Below, one piece after another: positions 7,501-22,665 of a stretch of 64,000 nucleotides of DNA; the first letter of the stretch is position 1, and each line of letters opens with the position of its first letter. Under the pieces are notes generated by a model that did not search any database, was not told the DNA's origin, and saw only the letters and a list, made by a program, of their open reading frames with translations. The DNA comes from an uncultured Hyphomicrobiales bacterium (lineage in GTDB: Bacteria > Bacteroidota > Ignavibacteria > Kapaibacteriales > UBA2268). Where the stretch lies: positions 1,554 to 65,553 of the forward strand of contig CAZCHH010000006.1 of assembly GCA_964498585.1 (NCBI GenBank), in the 5' to 3' direction. The translations under genes and the position numbers were made by a program.

Positions 7501-8426
7501 TAAGTTTTTTACTAATATTGCTAACAGCTTTATTTTTCCCCGGAATTATAAGCAGAACCAAGAGTATTGCAAGCGGGCGCAAGGGTCCTTCTATTCTACA
7601 GCCCTGGAAAAATATATTTGTATTGCTAAAAAAAGGAAGTAAATTCAGTGATACCACAAGTATTGTTTTTCAGATTACTCCTGTAATTTATTTAACCACA
7701 ATAGTTTGCGCAATGCTGCTTTTACCTTTTGAAGCAAACCGAATGCTTACTGGCAACATTTCAATAATTGGATTTGACGGGGATTTCATACTTTTTGCCT
7801 ATTTGCTTGCACTCGGAAGATTTTTCTTTATAATCGCTGCTTTGGATACCGGAAGTAGTTTTGAAGGAATGGGAGCAAACCGCGAAGCTCTTTATTCTAT
7901 GCTTTTAGAACCAGCTTTTTTCATTATAATAAGTTCTTTTGCTCTTGTTTCCGGTAATATCTCAATGCAGTCAATTTTTTCCTGCATTGAATTTGCAAAT
8001 ACTTACTACTATATAATTGGAATAATCATAATCTATCTTTTCGTTCAAATTGCGATGATTGAAAACAGCCGTTTGCCGGTAGATGACCCCAAAACGCACC
8101 TTGAACTAACGATGATTCACGAGGTAATGCTGCTTGATAGCTGTGGTTTCGACCTTGCTTTAATTCAAATAGGCACTTACTTGAAATTTGCTATATTTGG
8201 AACGATTATCGCTAATATAATTATTCCGCTAAATACACCTGTTTTGCTTCAGTTCGTAATATTTTTTGCAACTCAAATACTTTTTGCAGTAGTCATCGGC
8301 TTTTTGGAATCGTTCAGGGCAAGAAAAAAAATGGTTAAGAATCCACAGTTTATATTGAGTTTGAGTTCAATAGCACTTGTTGTGTTTGTGCTGTGTTTAT
8401 TACTTTTAAATCAAATGCTAAAATAA
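7497..8426 (+). CDS. hyfC: Hyf/Ehr complex NuoH-like subunit (HyfC)
   Basis: GRKGPSILQPW, SSFEGMGANRE and ENSRLPVDDPKTHLELTMIHE motifs; ATGA overlap with the upstream gene. Confidence 0.9.
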   Translation: MISFLLILLTALFFPGIISRTKSIASGRKGPSILQPWKNIFVLLKKGSKFSDTTSIVFQITPVIYLTTIVCAMLLLPFEANRMLTGNISIIGFDGDFILFAYLLALGRFFFIIAALDTGSSFEGMGANREALYSMLLEPAFFIIISSFALVSGNISMQSIFSCIEFANTYYYIIGIIIIYLFVQIAMIENSRLPVDDPKTHLELTMIHEVMLLDSCGFDLALIQIGTYLKFAIFGTIIANIIIPLNTPVLLQFVIFFATQILFAVVIGFLESFRARKKMVKNPQFILSLSSIALVVFVLCLLLLNQMLK

Positions 8427-9043
8427 TGAATATATTACTTGTTATATTATTTGGAATTACGCTGATTTACCTTTGTATTACAGAGCGTTTCAGAATTCAT
8501 ACAAAACTAATTGGTTTTCAGGGAATTATATTATTCGCTCTTGCTTTTTGGGAATTAGAAGCATTAACGGTAGGAAATCTAATTTTTGTAGCATCGGAAA
8601 CCTTGATTTTTAAAGCAATTGCCGTTCCCTTTCTGCTGCTAAAAATAATTAAAAAGACCGGCGAGGAACGGGTCTTTAAAAACGACTTCCACGAATTATA
8701 TTCTGTTATTTTTATTTCAATCGGACTTGTTCTCAGCATTTTAATTGCATACACTATGAAATTGCAGGTAATAAACACTACTTACTTCATAATTTCACTT
8801 TTTGGACTTTATGCTGGTATGTATATTATTATTACGCACAGAAAAATATTTTCTCATCTGATTGGATTTTTAATTATAGAAAATGCGGTGTTCCTGCTTT
8901 CTTTTGCGATTGGGAAAGAAATGCCGATGCTTATAAATATAGCAGTGCTGCTCGACATTTTTGCAAGCGTTTTGCTACTTGGAATTTTTGCTATGAGATT
9001 AAAACAAAATATTAGTGATTTAACAATACTTAAAGATGAATAG
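8426..9043 (+). CDS. hyfE: Hyf/Ehr complex membrane subunit HyfE
   Basis: IGFLIIENAVFL motif. Start placed at the TAATG overlap (8426) rather than at 8393. Confidence 0.85.
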   Translation: MNILLVILFGITLIYLCITERFRIHTKLIGFQGIILFALAFWELEALTVGNLIFVASETLIFKAIAVPFLLLKIIKKTGEERVFKNDFHELYSVIFISIGLVLSILIAYTMKLQVINTTYFIISLFGLYAGMYIIITHRKIFSHLIGFLIIENAVFLLSFAIGKEMPMLINIAVLLDIFASVLLLGIFAMRLKQNISDLTILKDE

Positions 9044-10513
9044 ATGGTTTTATTAGGATTTTTCATATTATCTTTTTTATCTGGTTTATTGGTGTTCCTG
9101 TGCGGATTTAAGCAAAATCAGAGTAAAACACTGGTTAAAGCAACAACTATAATTTTTGCATTCCTGCATTTATCATTAGTTATTTATTGTTGGATGCATA
9201 TTGAAGAAACTGAATTAGATTATTTCACATTCGATAAACTTGGAGTTTTACTGCTTTCAATCCTTTCGCTTCTTACATTTACAACAATTTACCATGGCTT
9301 CATCTATCTTAAAGATGAAACCCCAAAGCGCTTTGCCATTTATCATTCAGCACTCATTGCCTTGATTTTCTCAATGTCCGGCGCTTATCTTGCAAATGGA
9401 ATAATAGTAACCTGGATTTTTGTAGAAGCGACAACCTTATCTGTTGTTGCATTAATTTATCACGACCGCACTGCCAGTTCTTTGGAAGCAGCTTGGAAGT
9501 ATTTTTTTGTTTGCTCAATTGGAATAACACTTGCTTATATTGGAATACTCTTTCTGGGTTTCACAGTAAGCGGAAGTGATATTTTAGAGCTTTCATTTTC
9601 AGAATTATCGAACATGTCATTACAGGCAGAACCACTATATCTGAAAATTGCATTTATCTTTATATTTGTCGGCTACAGCACAAAAATGGGACTTTTCCCG
9701 ATGCACACCGTTACGATTGACGCCCATTCTGTTTCACCGCCGCCAATAAGTGCTTTTATTTCAACGACATTGATGAATGTTGGCTTTATAGCTATTTTCA
9801 GAGTGTATTCCCTGCTATCAACTACGATGCAAACTGGCACAAATATTCATCAGTTTATGAATAATCTTCTCATTCTTTCAGGTATGTTGTCTTTGCTAAT
9901 TGCTTCAGGATATATGCTGAAAGCAAAACATAACAAAAGGATGCTTGCTTATTCGAGTTTGGAAAATATGGGAATTGTTGCTATTGCTCTTGGTATTGGC
10001 GGTATTGCTTATTATGCTGCAATTTTGCATATAGTATTGCACTCTTTAACAAAAGCGGGTTTGTTTTATCAAATGGGACAATCGAAAAAAGTATTGGGAA
10101 CTTATATGTTAGATGAATCCGGCGATTATCTGCGGCTCTATCCTGCGGGCGCAGCAGCACTTATGCTCGGTATTATATGTATTGTTGCGATTCCGCCGTC
10201 TGGACTTTTTATTTCAGAATTCATTCTTTTCAAGGCAATGGTATCAAATGGTGAGTTTTTTTATCTAATTGCTACGGTGCTTTTACTTACTTTTGTCATT
10301 TACGCTTTAATTACACGTGTGCTTCATATCTTATTTTCAAAGCCGCGGGGAAATGAGAATCCTTATGCTGAAACTCACAAATCAAATAAGGTAAATCCAG
10401 TTCAAACAGTTTCGCAATTCCTTTTATTCGGTATGGTGATATATATTTGTTTTTCGCAACCGGAATTTCTTCAGGATACTATTAATTCTATTATTCAAAA
10501 TTTACCTAAATAA
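9044..10513 (+). CDS. hyfF: Hyf/Ehr complex antiporter-like subunit HyfF (NuoM/N-like)
   Basis: WIFVEATT, SLEAAWKYFFVCSIG, TKMGLFPMHT, KRMLAYSSLEN and HSLTKA motifs. Confidence 0.9.
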   Translation: MVLLGFFILSFLSGLLVFLCGFKQNQSKTLVKATTIIFAFLHLSLVIYCWMHIEETELDYFTFDKLGVLLLSILSLLTFTTIYHGFIYLKDETPKRFAIYHSALIALIFSMSGAYLANGIIVTWIFVEATTLSVVALIYHDRTASSLEAAWKYFFVCSIGITLAYIGILFLGFTVSGSDILELSFSELSNMSLQAEPLYLKIAFIFIFVGYSTKMGLFPMHTVTIDAHSVSPPPISAFISTTLMNVGFIAIFRVYSLLSTTMQTGTNIHQFMNNLLILSGMLSLLIASGYMLKAKHNKRMLAYSSLENMGIVAIALGIGGIAYYAAILHIVLHSLTKAGLFYQMGQSKKVLGTYMLDESGDYLRLYPAGAAALMLGIICIVAIPPSGLFISEFILFKAMVSNGEFFYLIATVLLLTFVIYALITRVLHILFSKPRGNENPYAETHKSNKVNPVQTVSQFLLFGMVIYICFSQPEFLQDTINSIIQNLPK

Positions 10514-10519
10514 ACAGAA

Positions 10520-12037
10520 ATGCAAAGCAATTTTTTAGAAATAAAATCAAATCCAAATGCGGTGAAACTCGCCGATATTCCTGTTGTTGAATACAATGAG
10601 TTTAAAAGAGAAATAGAAAATTTATTTGAAGACAGTTCGAACCATTGCCTAAATTATTTTGCATTTCCCTTTCAGGATAAATTCAAATTTCTGTGTTTTA
10701 TAGGAAATGATGAAAAGCATAATATTTCTGTATATTCCTTTGAAAAGCAGAAAAATGAAATAATCACTCTTGATTCAATTACCGAAAAACATTTCCAATT
10801 TCACATATTTGAGCGTGAAATGTATGAAAATTATGGTATTAACTTTTCAAACCATCCATTGCTCAAGCCAGTTCGCTACCCCTTTAATCGCTTTAATCCA
10901 AAAAGCAAAATTGAAAATTATCCCTTTTATTCAATTGAAAGTGATGAACTGCACGAAGTCGGAGTGGGTCCAATTCACGCCGGTGTAATCGAACCGGGCT
11001 ATTTCAGATTTATATGTAATGGCGAAAATGTCCTTCATCTCGAAATTCATCTTGGTTTCCAGCATCGTGGAATTGAACAGCTTTTTAAGGAAAAACAAAA
11101 TATACTTCAACAAACAATATTAGCCGAAAGCATAGCTGGAGACACAACTATTGGGCATACAACGGCTTACTCTATGGTAACAGAAACCCTTTCACATTAT
11201 AAGATGTCTGATGAACTTTCAATAGCCCGCACTATAGCAAACGAATTAGAAAGAATTGCGGTTCATATTGGAGATATGGCTGCACTTTGCGGAGATGTCG
11301 CTTATCAGTTTGGGCAGGTGGTTTGCGAAGCATTGAGAACTATAATTATAAATACTACACAGTTTTGGTGTGGGAATCGTTTGGGTAAAGGACTTATTCG
11401 CCCGGCTGGTTGTAATTATCAGCTTACCGTTAATGCTGTTAATGAAATAATGAAAAATATTCAAGAAGTTGAAGAACGTTTTTTGCAAATTACTGATAGA
11501 ATTTTTACATTACCGAGTGTGCTTGCAAGGTTTGAGCTAATCGGCATTGTTACCAAAAAGCAGGCAGAAATGATTGGAGCAGTTGGTATGGCAGCACGCA
11601 GCTCCGGATTAGAAAGAGATATTCGCCGCTCTCATCAATATTTGCATTATGGAAAGCTCAGCTACGAACCAGTTGTTTTAACGAAAGGTGATGTGCTGGC
11701 AAGGGCTTTGATGCGTAAGAACGAGTTTGAAAAATCTGTAAAATTAATTAAAGATTTGCTAAGTGGAATTGGAGCAATTACAAACCTTCCCAAACCTAAT
11801 TACAGCTTGAAATTTGAACCGTCTTCAGTTGCAATTTCATTGGTTGAGGGCTGGCGAGGTGAGATTTGCCATTGCGCAGTAACAGATGAGAATGGAAATT
11901 TGCAGCATTACAAAGTGAAAGACCCGTCTTTGCATAACTGGCTTGCCCTTGCTCTTGCGGTGCGTGAGCAGGAAATATCCGATTTTCCCTTATGCAATAA
12001 AAGTTTTAATTTATCTTATTCCGGAAATGATTTATAG
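10520..12037 (+). CDS. Ehr large subunit (NuoC+NuoD/HyfG-like) lacking NiFe-binding cysteines
   Basis: VGPIHAGVIEPG, VEGWRGE and KVKDPS motifs. The L1 site reads AESIAGDTTIGH and the C-terminus reads NKSFNLSYSGNDL, neither with CxxC. Confidence 0.9.
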   Translation: MQSNFLEIKSNPNAVKLADIPVVEYNEFKREIENLFEDSSNHCLNYFAFPFQDKFKFLCFIGNDEKHNISVYSFEKQKNEIITLDSITEKHFQFHIFEREMYENYGINFSNHPLLKPVRYPFNRFNPKSKIENYPFYSIESDELHEVGVGPIHAGVIEPGYFRFICNGENVLHLEIHLGFQHRGIEQLFKEKQNILQQTILAESIAGDTTIGHTTAYSMVTETLSHYKMSDELSIARTIANELERIAVHIGDMAALCGDVAYQFGQVVCEALRTIIINTTQFWCGNRLGKGLIRPAGCNYQLTVNAVNEIMKNIQEVEERFLQITDRIFTLPSVLARFELIGIVTKKQAEMIGAVGMAARSSGLERDIRRSHQYLHYGKLSYEPVVLTKGDVLARALMRKNEFEKSVKLIKDLLSGIGAITNLPKPNYSLKFEPSSVAISLVEGWRGEICHCAVTDENGNLQHYKVKDPSLHNWLALALAVREQEISDFPLCNKSFNLSYSGNDL

Positions 12038-12042
12038 AAAAT

Positions 12043-12834
12043 ATGAATATACTTAAAACTATAGCGGAACTGCTACCATCAAAGGAAATTAAGATTTTTA
12101 GCAGACACGGAAAGCAATTCGTTCCAAATTTGCAAACAGCAGAATTAACTCCTTTATTCAGAGGCAGACCAGTCATTAGCAAGGGACTTAGCGATGAGTC
12201 GAAAGATGCTTTAGTTCAGCTTTGCCCACTCGAAGCGATAAGCAAATCTCCTTTTGGTATTGACTTGGGGAAATGCAATTTTTGCAAAGAATGTGCTTTT
12301 GCTTTTCCAGATAAAATAAAATTTACTAATGATTACAAAATTGCAACTAATGCCCGCGAAAATCTTTTTGTAAGCGAAGGTGAAGACAAACCGATTGAAA
12401 TAAATAAATCAATAATAAGAAAAGAAATCGCTACATTTTTCAAAAATTCTTTAAAGCTACGGCACATAGCAGCTGGTGGCGATATGGCTTGCGATATGGA
12501 AATGAACGCAATCGGAAACGTAAACTTCGACATTGGCCGCTATGGGATTGAATTTGTTGCTTCTCCCCGCCACGCTGATGGCATTCTAATTACAGGTCCT
12601 ATTTCTCAAAATATGGCTGAAGCATTGCAAATATGCTATGATGCTGTCCCCCCGCCAAAAGTCATTATTTTAGCCGGAACAGATGCAATAAGTTCTGGTA
12701 TTTATAAAGGAAGCAAAGCGATAGACCGTAGTTTCCTTGAAAAAGAGCCAATAGACCTATACTTACCGGGAAATCCTCCCCACCCTTTAACAATAATAAA
12801 TGGTTTGCTTGGTTTGACGAGAAAAGAATGGTAG
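12043..12834 (+). CDS. Ehr small subunit (ferredoxin-like domain fused to NuoB/HyfI-like domain) with degenerate Fe-S ligands
   Basis: FVASPRHADGILITGP core. Ligand motifs read GGDMAC, GTD and PGNPP; the N-terminal domain retains CP and CNFCKEC. Confidence 0.88.
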   Translation: MNILKTIAELLPSKEIKIFSRHGKQFVPNLQTAELTPLFRGRPVISKGLSDESKDALVQLCPLEAISKSPFGIDLGKCNFCKECAFAFPDKIKFTNDYKIATNARENLFVSEGEDKPIEINKSIIRKEIATFFKNSLKLRHIAAGGDMACDMEMNAIGNVNFDIGRYGIEFVASPRHADGILITGPISQNMAEALQICYDAVPPPKVIILAGTDAISSGIYKGSKAIDRSFLEKEPIDLYLPGNPPHPLTIINGLLGLTRKEW

Positions 12835-17075: not shown

Positions 17076-19907
17076 ATGAAAAAAATTATTACGATTTTAT
17101 TCCTGTTATTCATTTGTATTAGCGACTTATTATCATTAGAAATTACAGAGGGAAGAGAGTTTTGGTTTGGTTTGCCATATTGTAAAACGAATAAATTAGA
17201 ATTTGCTCTTGGAATGTATCCGATTGAAATATGGATTTCTTCAAAATACGACACAAAAGCTACAATAAAAATTAAATCAACCGGATTTGATAAACAATTT
17301 GTTGTTCAAAACAATAAAGTAACAAAAGTTGGAATTAATGACAGGGCTATGTGTAAAGAATCTGAAATTGCTCAGGACAATGGTATTCATATAAAATCCG
17401 AGCATCCTGTAACAGTTTATGTCTATTATGCTTATCAATGGACTGGTGAGGTCTTTAATGTGATTCCTATTGATTGGCTTGGTAAAAAATACGTTTCACT
17501 TAATTTATATGAAGATAAAACTGAAGAATTAAATCCACCTCTAATTCTAATTGTTGCAAGTGAAGACAATACTATTGTTTATTATCAACCAACGAAACCA
17601 ACTGAAAAAGTAAGTGCCGGAACAAAAAAAGAAGTTAAACTCAATAAAGGTCAAACTTTCCTTATTCTTGGTAAAGAAGATAATAATGTTCTTCGAAGTC
17701 CGGAATCTGATATAACCGGAACATTTATAACATCAAACAAACCAATAGCTGTTATATCAGGCCATACCAAAGGAACGACTTTTGGTTATACTATTAATCC
17801 TTTTAATAAGGAAGAACAATATCGTGTTCGTAATGTAATGCTTGAGCAGCTATTACCAATAGAACTTCTTGGAACTGAGTATATACCTGTTGCAATTCGG
17901 CTAAACAGTTTAGACCCATATCATATAAGATTTTATGAAGGTGATTTAATCAGATTTGTTGCAACACAGGACAGTACAATCATTTATCAAATGCGACTAG
18001 ATGGCTCTGGCTTAAAACAAATAACAATTCCTTTAAAAACCGGTGAATATTTTGATATTAGTTCACAGGAAAATGTATGTTATTATAAATCTAACTTTCC
18101 AATTTTAGTTGGACAATTCAGTAAGGGTTGGTCATATTATAATAAGTTATTTCAGGGAATTTTTATTAGTTTAACTCCAAAAGAGCGTTGGGGAAATTTT
18201 GCCATATTTGATTCTCCATCTAAAGACAAAAATTATATTGATATTACTCTTCTTTATGAAGATTTTGAAAATTTATATTTTGATGGAATTAATATGAAAG
18301 CATCTGGAGGATTTAGTGCCATAAAAATACCCGGAACTCCTTATGCCTACATTTCTGAAAAAATTGATAATGGAAATCACATAATTGAAGGACGAAATGG
18401 TGCAAAGTTTGGGGCTTATGCTTATGGAAATATGGACGAACTTAACTATGGTTTTTCTTATGGATATCCAGTTGGAATTAATTACGCTGAAGCTTGTGAA
18501 GATTCTATTTTTATTGATGACTTTGTTTGGGAAAAAAAGGTAAAAGCAACTGCATATTCAATTAATACATCATTAGATACAAATTGCGCTGGATTATATT
18601 CAATATGGGCTTATCCTGAAGAAATTTATAATTACAAATTTAGTGTATCAGAATTCAATTCCGGTGATTCTTCTGCTTCTTATGAGCTTTCTGTTATTGA
18701 TACAACAAAAAATGCTTTTGCTGTTATTAATGTTATGAATCGTTCTGGCTACAAGACCAACAGGAGCTATAGCTATACAGCACCAGTGGTTTCTCCTCCT
18801 GTCGAATTAATATCACCCAAAAACAAATCAGTAAACTTAGATACTATTGTCCGCTTAACCTGGAATGAAACAATAAGAGCAGATGGCTATCATTTGCAAA
18901 TATCCAAAGCAGAAAATTTCTTTGCTAAAATATTAGATACAGCCCTTATTTATGACACAAGTTATACCGTTGACTTAGAAATGAAAACAAAGCACTTTTG
19001 GCGGGTTAGAGGATATAACTCTGCAGGTTATGGAGAATGGTCTCAAATCTGGAATTTTACTACGTATTCTAATCAATCTATACTAATTTTTCCTGAAAAT
19101 AAATCAACAATAAAATTTGATACAATCAATTTTATCTGGTACAGCCATCCAATTGCACTTGCATATACTATTCAAATTGCTAAAGACACGGTATTTCAAT
19201 CGAATATACATGAAAACATAGTTACTGATACTTTATTTTGTATTATTAGAGAAAATTTAAATTCTTCGTTTTACTACTGGCGTGTTAAATCTAATAATTC
19301 TTTAAATACAGGTGAATGGTCTGAAATTTGGAATTTCCAAACTGAATTTGATAAAGCAGTTCTTATTGAACCTCCTAACGATACTTCAAATATTCCAATT
19401 GAAGTTAATTTTTTGTGGCAAATGCAAAGCAATACTCCAAAATATAGAATTCAAGTTTCAAACCAAAGTAATTTTTTATCAATAATAATTGATACAATAC
19501 TTTCTCAAAATACCTACTCAAAAGTATTGTCCTATAATAAAAAGTACTACTGGCGTGTTTGTGCCGGCGATGGCGAGAATTTCGGCAAATGGTCAGATGT
19601 GTGGACTTTTACTACCGGCGATTTCTCAGATGTAAAAAATAATGTTAAAGAAAATAATGTCTTTTCCATTTTTCCAAATCCCGTTGATGACGAACTTTAT
19701 ATTGAATTTTCAAATGACTTTTCAAACAATTGCGAAATAGAAATTATTGATATGCAAGGAATTACTGTTTCATCAATAAAAAAATCAAATCTGATTTATG
19801 GAATAAACAAAGAGCAAATCTCACTAAAAGATTTACTGGTTGGCACTTATAATTGTGTATTGAAAATTGGCGGGAACAGGTATTATAAAATGTTTGTAAA
19901 GATGTAG
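17076..19907 (+). CDS. T9SS substrate: IgGFc-binding-type N-terminal domain, three FN3-like repeats, T9SS CTD
   Basis: Signal peptide; TEGREFWF and ITSNKPIAVISGH motifs; three repeats ending WS(Q/E/D)(I/V)W(N/T)F(T/Q)T; CTD IFPNP...YYKMFVKM. Confidence 0.8.
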   Translation: MKKIITILFLLFICISDLLSLEITEGREFWFGLPYCKTNKLEFALGMYPIEIWISSKYDTKATIKIKSTGFDKQFVVQNNKVTKVGINDRAMCKESEIAQDNGIHIKSEHPVTVYVYYAYQWTGEVFNVIPIDWLGKKYVSLNLYEDKTEELNPPLILIVASEDNTIVYYQPTKPTEKVSAGTKKEVKLNKGQTFLILGKEDNNVLRSPESDITGTFITSNKPIAVISGHTKGTTFGYTINPFNKEEQYRVRNVMLEQLLPIELLGTEYIPVAIRLNSLDPYHIRFYEGDLIRFVATQDSTIIYQMRLDGSGLKQITIPLKTGEYFDISSQENVCYYKSNFPILVGQFSKGWSYYNKLFQGIFISLTPKERWGNFAIFDSPSKDKNYIDITLLYEDFENLYFDGINMKASGGFSAIKIPGTPYAYISEKIDNGNHIIEGRNGAKFGAYAYGNMDELNYGFSYGYPVGINYAEACEDSIFIDDFVWEKKVKATAYSINTSLDTNCAGLYSIWAYPEEIYNYKFSVSEFNSGDSSASYELSVIDTTKNAFAVINVMNRSGYKTNRSYSYTAPVVSPPVELISPKNKSVNLDTIVRLTWNETIRADGYHLQISKAENFFAKILDTALIYDTSYTVDLEMKTKHFWRVRGYNSAGYGEWSQIWNFTTYSNQSILIFPENKSTIKFDTINFIWYSHPIALAYTIQIAKDTVFQSNIHENIVTDTLFCIIRENLNSSFYYWRVKSNNSLNTGEWSEIWNFQTEFDKAVLIEPPNDTSNIPIEVNFLWQMQSNTPKYRIQVSNQSNFLSIIIDTILSQNTYSKVLSYNKKYYWRVCAGDGENFGKWSDVWTFTTGDFSDVKNNVKENNVFSIFPNPVDDELYIEFSNDFSNNCEIEIIDMQGITVSSIKKSNLIYGINKEQISLKDLLVGTYNCVLKIGGNRYYKMFVKM

Positions 19908-21166: not shown

Positions 21167-21874
21167 ATGGAAGCATTATTGAACTTTGCTCAAGGACCGC
21201 TTTTTCGGTTTTCTTTTGCTATTATGATACTTGGATTAATCCGCCTTTTTACATTAACAATAATAAATGGATTAGAATCGAAATCAAAAGCAAAAGATAA
21301 ACCCATTCCAGTTAATTATGTAAAAAAAATGACTTTGGGATATATATTTCCTATAAGAGCATTTAGAAAAAAACCTCTTTATGCAGCTGTTTCAATCATT
21401 TTTCACATCGGTTTGCTGATTACTCCAATATTTTTAATCGACCATAATTTATTATTCCAAAACTCTATTGGTGTTTCATTGCTTGGTATATCTATCTCTA
21501 AAGGATTTGCAGATATATTAACTCTTATAACCATAATTTCGGCTCTGATATTGTTCATTATGCGTTCAAGCAATGAAGCATCACGCTTCTTGAGTAGGAA
21601 ACAAGATTACATCTGGCTAATTCTGCTTATAATTCCTTTTTCAACTGGATTTGTTTGCGCTCAAATTGAAGTGGGACCGTCAGTTTATAGCTTTTGTATG
21701 CTTATTCATATTTTAAGTGGATGTGCAATCTTTATTTTAATTCCATTCACAAAAATTGCACATTGTGTATTACTTCCTTTGGGGCAATGGATTACAGCAC
21801 GAGCTTGGAAATTTCCGGCAGAAGCAGGTGAAGAAGTTGAAAGAACACTTAGCAAACAAGGAGAGAAATTATGA
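21167..21874 (+). CDS. NarI/HmcE/DsrM-like di-heme b membrane subunit
   Basis: About 5 TM helices with two His pairs (IIFHIGL...IDHN and LIHILS...TKIAHC). Confidence 0.8.
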   Translation: MEALLNFAQGPLFRFSFAIMILGLIRLFTLTIINGLESKSKAKDKPIPVNYVKKMTLGYIFPIRAFRKKPLYAAVSIIFHIGLLITPIFLIDHNLLFQNSIGVSLLGISISKGFADILTLITIISALILFIMRSSNEASRFLSRKQDYIWLILLIIPFSTGFVCAQIEVGPSVYSFCMLIHILSGCAIFILIPFTKIAHCVLLPLGQWITARAWKFPAEAGEEVERTLSKQGEKL

Positions 21875-22665
21875 ATGCTATTTTGACTGATATTACAAAA
21901 TGCGTAGGATGCAATGAGTGCGTTAAAGCTTGTAAAAAAATCAACAAACTTCCAGCAGATAAGCCACGCTTTTGGCAAAAAAATGACGGACTTTCTGCAA
22001 GGAATTGGACTTCTGTCCTTCACGATGGTAAATATAACATTCGTAAGCAGTGTCGCCATTGCATTGAACCTACCTGTGTGTCGGTTTGTCCCGTTGGAGC
22101 ATTGCACAAAACCGATTCTGGTGCTGTTGTGTATGACAGTTCGAAATGCTTGGGCTGCCGCTATTGTATGATGGCTTGCCCTTATGGTATTCCACGTTAT
22201 GACTGGGATAGCGCGGTGCCTTATATTAAAAAATGTATTATGTGTTTTGAAAATATAAAAGAAGGAATAATTGACCAACCTGCCTGCACTTCTGTATGCC
22301 CGGTTAAAGCTACTATATATGGAGATAGGGCAGAGCTGCTCTCTATTGCTAAACAAAGAATAGCTGAAAAACCAGAGCTTTATTTGAACCATATTTATGG
22401 AGAAAGAGAAGTTGGAGGAACTAATGTTTTGTATATAACCGCAAAGGATTGTCCCTTAGATTTCCTTTTTTATTATAATAATCGAATAGATAAAAATGTA
22501 AAACTATTAGGGCAACCAAATATCAATGAACCAATACCTTTAACTACAAAATGGGCTATGGGAGCTGTTCCATATACTTTTATTGGTATGGGAGCTTTTA
22601 TGAGTGGTGCTTACTGGATTATTAAACGCCGAGAAAAGATGAGTAAAAAGGAAACTGAAATATAA
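21871..22665 (+). CDS. 4x[4Fe-4S] protein, HybA/FdnH/HmcB-like, with a C-terminal TM helix
   Basis: CVGCNECVKAC, CRHCIEPTCVSVCP, CLGCRYCMMACP and KKCIMC...PACTSVCP; no twin-Arg signal. Confidence 0.9.
   Translation: MNAILTDITKCVGCNECVKACKKINKLPADKPRFWQKNDGLSARNWTSVLHDGKYNIRKQCRHCIEPTCVSVCPVGALHKTDSGAVVYDSSKCLGCRYCMMACPYGIPRYDWDSAVPYIKKCIMCFENIKEGIIDQPACTSVCPVKATIYGDRAELLSIAKQRIAEKPELYLNHIYGEREVGGTNVLYITAKDCPLDFLFYYNNRIDKNVKLLGQPNINEPIPLTTKWAMGAVPYTFIGMGAFMSGAYWIIKRREKMSKKETEI

Follow-up and report, generated by a model that had tools for sequence, protein, structure and literature searches.

Here we describe the EhrS-type small subunit of an Ehr (energy-converting hydrogenase-related) complex, a membrane complex akin to hydrogenases and respiratory complex I. 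It is encoded by the last gene of a six-gene operon in the window (the whole 64,000-nucleotide stretch of DNA that was analysed). The gene is intact, and purifying selection on it is strong. Its ancestor encoded a small subunit with three [4Fe-4S] clusters, in which a two-cluster NuoI/HycF-like ferredoxin was joined to a NuoB/HycG-like domain bearing the proximal cluster; in the host's branch of the Bacteroidota, the outer ferredoxin cluster and the proximal cluster are gone and the middle cluster is left. We give a probability of roughly 0.6 to the reading that this is an intact Ehr small subunit with one cluster left, and that the complex likely moves ions without the canonical electron path.

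The operon is tightly packed in the order hyfB-C-E-F-large-small, and all six ORFs are intact (Table 1). Each of the encoded proteins except the HyfE-like one has a Pfam match. All NCBIfam equivalog matches of these proteins, including the weak HyfE match and the best match of the first gene (hydrogenase 4 subunit B), fall far under the curated cutoffs, and the operon is thus a divergent branch of its superfamily. The HyfE-like ORF as listed starts at GTG 8393 and overlaps hyfC by 34 nt; a start at ATG 8426, where the codon overlaps the hyfC stop, appears more likely because the resulting protein of about 205 residues fits the usual length of HyfE orthologues (204–211 residues). Genes for RNase R, a TsaD/TsaB-family protein and FtsK flank the operon. 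About 8 kb downstream of it, two neighbouring genes (21167–22665) code for a protein that matches NarI (nitrate reductase gamma) weakly and in part and for a 4Fe-4S dicluster protein (Fer4_11); this pair could be a small membrane redox module. The product of the gene at 17076–19907, a secreted protein of 943 residues, bears a C-terminal sorting domain for type IX secretion (Por_Secre_tail); this fits a host in the Bacteroidota/FCB group, as does the Kapabacteria label of the closest small-subunit relative noted below (P0001). In runs X2 and X18, from two metagenomes, contigs connect position 7879 to 11074 by way of 20 foreign letters and have loose ends at 7862 and 11094; a clean deletion was not seen in these runs, and the join probably reflects either an artefact of the assembly graph or variation between strains. 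Run X9, labelled RNA-Seq, carries the locus; its Logan contigs also span the intergenic flank and may include DNA, which makes the run ambiguous as evidence of transcription.

Table 1 Genes of the operon and ligand positions of the small subunit, in window coordinates
Feature	Position	Strand	Details
HyfB/EhrA-like antiporter-like membrane subunit, 657 aa	5527..7500	+	Pfam Proton_antipo_M, E = 1.4e-54
HyfC/NuoH-like membrane subunit, 309 aa	7497..8426	+	Pfam NADHdh, E = 4e-24
HyfE-like membrane subunit	8393..9043	+	NCBIfam hydrogenase 4 membrane subunit, E = 1.7e-10, under cutoff
HyfF-like antiporter-like membrane subunit, 489 aa	9044..10513	+	Pfam Proton_antipo_M, E = 3e-39
Fused NuoC-like/NuoD-HycE-like large subunit, 505 aa	10520..12037	+	Pfam Complex1_49kDa + Complex1_30kDa
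Small subunit, 263 aa	12043..12834	+	Pfam Oxidored_q6 (PF01058), E = 3.5e-19
Sole remaining [4Fe-4S] ligand set	12223..12309	+	C61-P62 12223-12228; C78 12274-12276; C81 12283-12285; C84 12292-12294
Former proximal-cluster CxxC, now D147-M-A-C150	12481..12492	+	Aligned to MbhJ CNGC; D147 = GAT 12481-12483, C150 = TGC 12490-12492, both inside GGDMACD
D214 replacing third proximal-cluster Cys (GTD for GAC)	12682..12684	+	GAT, inside AGTDAISSG
N244 replacing fourth proximal-cluster Cys (PGNPP for PGCPP)	12772..12774	+	AAT, inside PGNPPHP

The large subunit has no catalytic metal site. Its L1 segment reads AESIAGDTTIGH and its L2 segment reads NLSYSGNDL; compared with HycE (7z0s_E), RVCGICGFAH has become SIAGDTTIGH and DPCYSCTD has become NLSYSGND, with the loss of all four NiFe cysteines. 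The chain ends in SYSGNDL, immediately past L2, and there is no C-terminal maturation extension. In an alignment to Thermus Nqo4, the quinone-site residues His38 and Tyr87 of NuoD (Thermus numbering) fall on Ile157 and Gly207. With the NiFe cysteines and the quinone His/Tyr pair both missing, the pocket is thus not a hydrogenase site, and it is not a canonical site for quinone either.

Because the large subunit lacks any NiFe cysteine, the operon belongs to the Ehr family, and it has the other attributes of that family as well: the operon content, no CxxC NiFe ligands in L1 or L2, no maturation extension, and no hyp or protease genes among the adjoining genes examined. The Ehr complex of Geobacter sulfurreducens (EhrA-D, L, S; GSU0739-45), for example, has the same Hyf/Ech-like set of antiporter-like, NuoH-like, large and small subunits, and its large subunit likewise lacks the four NiFe cysteines and the C-terminal extension. 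The Bacteroidota branch differs in that it is also without the proximal cluster and one ferredoxin cluster, whereas many lineages of Planctomycetota, Myxococcota, Ignavibacteriota and Melainabacteria retain all four proximal-cluster cysteines (CCCC). Published descriptions of Ehr record the lack of NiFe ligands and assign no function. In subunit set and folds the operon also resembles the group 4 [NiFe]-hydrogenases (Escherichia coli Hyf/Hyc FHL, 7z0s; Pyrococcus MBH, 6cfw), and the best PDB sequence matches are HycE for the large subunit (E = 8e-35) and MbhJ for the small subunit (E = 6e-21). By contrast with those enzymes, it has no NiFe site (none of the four large-subunit cysteines), no proximal cluster and no hyp/endopeptidase context, and in place of a separate HycF/MbhN it has a half-ferredoxin fused to the small subunit. 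Judged by these residues, the complex cannot be a hydrogenase.

The small subunit begins with a half-ferredoxin (NuoI/HycF-like) domain, to which a NuoB/HycG-like domain is fused. The latter matches PF01058 (NuoB-like) with 69 bits against a cutoff of 27, and the NCBIfam NuoB and NuoI matches of the protein are under cutoff. When aligned to MbhJ (6cfw_J; reference motifs GSCNGCD, GAC and PGCPPRP) and to the PSST/NuoB chains of complex I, D147, C150, D214 and N244 fall on the four positions that are all cysteine where a proximal/N2 [4Fe-4S] cluster is bound. The first-pass annotation of this DNA had read these positions as C to D, C kept, C to D and C to N, and it was right to the codon. The ferredoxin domain is similarly reduced. 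Of the eight cysteines in a pair of CxxCxxCxxxCP motifs, only C61 (followed by proline), C78, C81 and C84 are present: the first three cysteines of motif 1 are missing, and F88-P89 (12304-12309) stands where the final CP of motif 2 would be. Because the cysteine of the motif-1 CP joins the CxxCxxC of motif 2 in two-cluster ferredoxins, these four residues make up exactly one ligand set. This count agrees with that annotation and with its proposal that a single conventional cluster may be kept; the small subunit has room for just one conventional [4Fe-4S] cluster.

The folds of the peripheral subunits are homologous to those of the complex I Q-module (NuoB with N2, NuoD, and NuoI with N6a and N6b), from which the complex differs in lacking the N2 ligands, the quinone His/Tyr pair and an N-module. 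The surviving cluster matches the NuoI cluster that is held by the motif-1 CP and the motif-2 CxxCxxC; going by the ligand assignment of Thermus Nqo9, we take this cluster to be the equivalent of N6b, the middle one of three. The segment that holds this ligand set (12223–12309) aligns weakly to the second CxxCxxCxxxCP motif of NuoI and to the NuoI C-terminal tail. The AlphaFold2 model of the small subunit has a pLDDT of 93.2 and a pTM of 0.88, and its best Foldseek matches are HycG (7z0s_G) and MbhJ (6cfw_J; TM 0.82, r.m.s.d. 2.1 Å). Since the model is confident and MbhJ and PSST can be superposed on its C-terminal domain to within about 2 Å, the NuoB-like fold persists without the proximal cluster.

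The altered residues are shared widely. A search of 5.8 billion proteins gave at least 8,000 candidates, of which the best 120 were used (58–93% identity); these come from Kapabacteria, Bacteroidales and other Bacteroidota MAGs, and the relatives are mostly Bacteroidota. In the resulting 121-sequence alignment of close relatives, D147 is present in 120 sequences, D214 in all 121 and N244 in 119, and the four ferredoxin cysteines C61, C78, C81 and C84 occur in 121 of 121; these cysteines are also invariant in alignments A1 and A2. Position 150 is cysteine in 70 of the 121 and A, T, V, S or I in the others, including a serine in a sequence of 93% identity labelled as Kapabacteria (P0001). The signature D-x-x-C/GTD/PGNPP, which the first-pass annotation had raised as a possible mark of a clade, therefore stands for D147, D214 and N244 (98–100%) and fails for the cysteine (58%). 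For the cluster-less NuoB-like domain, dN/dS is 0.054–0.075 (Nei–Gojobori, Bacteroidota pairs with unsaturated dS), about equal to the 0.03–0.055 of pairs that keep CCCC.

These data bear on whether the small-subunit gene might be a decaying pseudogene, or the odd residues errors of assembly or sequencing. The sequence does come from a MAG, and a few related loci have fragmented ORFs (L041, L010 and L075), but the six ORFs of the window are all intact, dN/dS is about 0.05–0.15, the same residues recur in hundreds of species, and identical DNA was recovered in independent bioreactor, wastewater and manure assemblies from several studies. We regard decay or artefact as hardly credible, and rejected both on the grounds of conservation, purifying selection and the independent assemblies. 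Far from being private to one decaying genome, an outcome for which the first-pass annotation had allowed, the residues are clade-wide and lie in intact ORFs under purifying selection.

The family was surveyed by an exhaustive HMMER search of 1.8 billion representatives and by a scan of one genome per species; the scan yielded 80 related loci, at which only homologues of the six operon genes were sought. The large subunits recovered from these loci all lack the NiFe cysteines. The ferredoxin/NuoB fusion and the order hyfB(-hyfB')-C-E-F-LSU-SSU are common to Bacteroidota, Melainabacteria, Planctomycetota, Lentisphaerota, Myxococcota, Spirochaetota, Ignavibacteriota and Aminicenantes, and nearly all related loci with the whole operon have the same gene order. 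An exception is a locus from Spirochaetota (L048, 7507-14669) with the permuted order LSU-SSU-hyfB-C-E-F; its small subunit is CCCC, and the branch of its large subunit in the tree is long (1.74). In many of the Bacteroidota loci (L004, L006, L009, L011, L012, L016, L018, L023, L025, L028 and L031), an extra HyfB-like antiporter gene lies upstream of hyfB. These relatives have a seven-gene form like that of Geobacter (EhrA-1/A-2), and the window has the six-gene form. At L041, L010, L075 and L076, several Ehr genes are in pieces, which reflects either true pseudogenization in MAGs or frameshift errors of long reads.

The small subunits at these loci fall into grades. Three clusters (CCCC and an eight-cysteine ferredoxin) are retained in Planctomycetota, Myxococcota, Ignavibacteriota, Aminicenantes and some Bacteroidota, and two in Gastranaerophilales. 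The one-cluster grade is the large Bacteroidota clade, with D-x-D-N at the former ligand positions, or D-x-E/D-A in the Alistipes/Rikenellaceae. Some Planctomycetota have a cluster-less proximal site (DSDN, DTDS, NEEW or SCCF) beside a full ferredoxin. Given that three-cluster and two-cluster relatives exist, the one-cluster form is derived. On this distribution, it is the normal state of a large Ehr branch and hence is not peculiar to the window. The Alistipes/Rikenellaceae loci, which are from gut MAGs (L039-L045 and L061), have the same operon, in which the former cluster site reads D-x-E-A or D-x-D-A, and gut Alistipes offer culturable organisms that carry the operon.

The history of these losses was traced on two trees. 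A tree of the large subunit does not depend on the trait; in it, the 41 cluster-less Bacteroidota loci form one clade (SH-aLRT 100), and the cluster-less Planctomycete loci lie inside a CCCC clade of Planctomycetes, Lentisphaera and Myxococcota; this tree requires at least two changes of cluster state. Monophyly of all cluster-less forms was rejected (delta lnL 113, p-AU 9e-5; AU test on a group chosen after the tree had been inspected). With the four trait columns removed, the tree of the small subunit requires 12 changes, at least five of which are forced by well-supported branches. From the tree topologies, the proximal cluster has been lost within Ehr at least twice independently. At ligand positions 1 and 3, most of the independent cluster-less lineages have Asp or Glu (DSDN, DTDS, DNDH, ECED, DVDS, DIDD, DEDS, TDES and NEEW). 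Because a change from Cys to Asp takes two nucleotide substitutions, this recurrence argues for selection of carboxylates over drift. The claim that the substitutions were selected and are not the result of decay is thus borne out by clade-wide conservation, by dN/dS of about 0.05–0.08 and by the return of Asp/Glu in independent lineages. In the large subunit and HyfC we found no convincing signature of changes that compensate for cluster loss: the only large-subunit columns that systematically separate the cluster-less Bacteroidota from CCCC forms are R42H, R290K and D301P, and the cluster-less Planctomycete form is without them.

The same residues raise the question of whether D147/C150/D214/N244 binds a different cofactor, such as a carboxylate-ligated [4Fe-4S] or [2Fe-2S] cluster or a mononuclear Fe, Mn, Ni or Zn, in a complex that stays redox-active and draws electrons from the nearby ferredoxin-type cluster. 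The conservation of the Asp/Asp/Asn triad at 98–100% within the clade would fit such a site, as would the rank of AGGDNSxEMELN, GTDAISGG and PGNPxHPLT among the most conserved segments of the protein, the invariance of the adjacent ferredoxin-type cluster, and the fact that several lineages have independently come to carry D/E at positions 1 and 3, in some cases with a third D, H, S or N reminiscent of a metal triad. Single Asp ligands to [4Fe-4S] clusters are known from Pyrococcus ferredoxin and the NB-protein of DPOR. However, position 150, the sole cysteine, is A, T, V, S or I in 42% of close relatives, and we know of no cubane held by just two carboxylates and an amide. In the Alistipes/Rikenellaceae, moreover, N244 is replaced by Ala, and ligand 3 is mostly Glu, a combination that looks like a size swap between contacting residues. 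Within the D-x-D-N clade, a nested subclade (P0154, P0156, P0165, P0177, P0194, P0197, P0201 and P0243) has wholly lost the AGGDxxxE motif, with GGDxxxE deleted and Q, A, K, E or T at position 214, and has kept its ferredoxin cysteines. The large subunit, with neither NiFe cysteines nor the quinone His/Tyr, also provides no acceptor. We therefore consider a different, redox-active cofactor quite improbable.

The most specific form of this idea, an Asp-ligated cubane at D147/D214/N244, was judged unlikely because ligand 2 is variable, ligand 4 is Ala in Alistipes and the nested subclade lacks the motif. The same three counts weaken, or leave unsupported, the earlier suggestion of a cluster with Asp ligands or of a new metal site that is obligatory. 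For the family as a whole, an indispensable metal site is not supported; the core Bacteroidota clade may still have one.

The membrane arm has kept the canonical antiporter residues. HyfB retains the canonical charged residues E136, K215, K246, H335, H339, K343 and E398, HyfF retains E128, K214, K337 and E392, and many Glu, Asp and His residues of HyfC are kept across the family. Conservation of the canonical antiporter-like residues is 95% or higher among cluster-less lineages and 90% or higher among those with CCCC. The two antiporter-like subunits are of the MrpA/D type with the canonical Glu/Lys set, and they are all that the operon has in common with the Mrp cation/proton antiporters, which are defined by an MrpA-G set and lack a peripheral arm. 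NuoH-, NuoD-, NuoB-, NuoC- and NuoI-like subunits are absent from Mrp, whereas here the entire peripheral module is kept, under strong purifying selection. The likeness to Mrp would be one of mechanism and not of membership, and Mrp is a candidate model for a redox-independent mode.

The most likely reading of these features is that of an ion-translocating complex that passes no electrons to the large subunit. The remaining cluster would lie more than 20 Å from the large-subunit pocket; at that distance, and with a pocket that has neither NiFe cysteines nor the quinone His/Tyr, electrons would be barred from the canonical route into the large subunit. The complex would still move ions, as an Mrp-like antiporter or another conformationally coupled transporter, and the peripheral arm would be a cap with a structural or regulatory role. 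In the cap, the two carboxylates may fill and charge-balance the cavity of the lost anionic cluster, or may hold a cation, and the last cluster would be a structural element or a redox sensor and no longer a wire. Conversion to a non-redox, Mrp-like pump had been proposed in the first-pass annotation. That proposal is a reasonable one because the large subunit is without cofactors as well; both the ion transport and the absence of redox chemistry are inferred from sequence. Two features sit less easily with this reading. No relative, however degenerate, departs from the ligand set of the remaining cluster, which could signal continuing redox work, and the strict Asp/Asp/Asn conservation within the clade is more than a plain cavity filler needs.

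The invariance of the four remaining cysteines in every lineage examined, the most degenerate included, would suit an oxidoreductase with a rerouted path. Here the single, surface-exposed ferredoxin-type cluster would trade electrons with the product of a gene located elsewhere (a formate dehydrogenase or a ferredoxin, for instance) and would gate the membrane arm conformationally without sending electrons onward to the large subunit; published proposals tie Ehr to formate dehydrogenase. However, neither the operon nor its flanks hold a gene for a redox partner, the related loci conserve an order of the six operon genes, and a lone cluster without a downstream acceptor has no obvious turnover chemistry. 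We consider such rerouting fairly unlikely. A further and distinctly unlikely possibility is that this Ehr branch is a natural coupling machine of the complex I/hydrogenase type that runs without any electrons entering its large subunit, and in which selection has repeatedly let a carboxylate pair replace the N2-equivalent cluster as a fixed charge or a cation- or proton-binding switch, with the arm acting as a ligand- or ion-gated controller.

The Ehr family is known; in the literature searched, which lay outside the founding Ehr papers, we found no description of small-subunit cluster loss or of the stripped-down one-cluster form. Complexes of this named family, to which no role has been assigned, occur widely, in settings that range from sediments to Alistipes, a genus of the human gut. 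From the alignments and trees, the one-cluster, carboxylate-lined state typifies a large Bacteroidota clade and arose more than once. In complex I and the energy-converting hydrogenases, the terminal cluster and the adjacent pocket hand redox energy to an ion-pumping membrane arm. Here a large clade under strong selection is without the terminal cluster and the catalytic metal site, yet has kept the entire coupling interface and every antiporter residue. The cluster-less clade is thus a natural experiment on what a peripheral arm does beyond carrying electrons, and the recurrent Asp/Glu replacement marks a specific, testable site. If the complex is indeed a redox-independent ion transporter, the annotations 'hydrogenase-4', 'formate hydrogenlyase' and 'NADH:ubiquinone oxidoreductase' borne by these genes in Bacteroidota would be functionally wrong.
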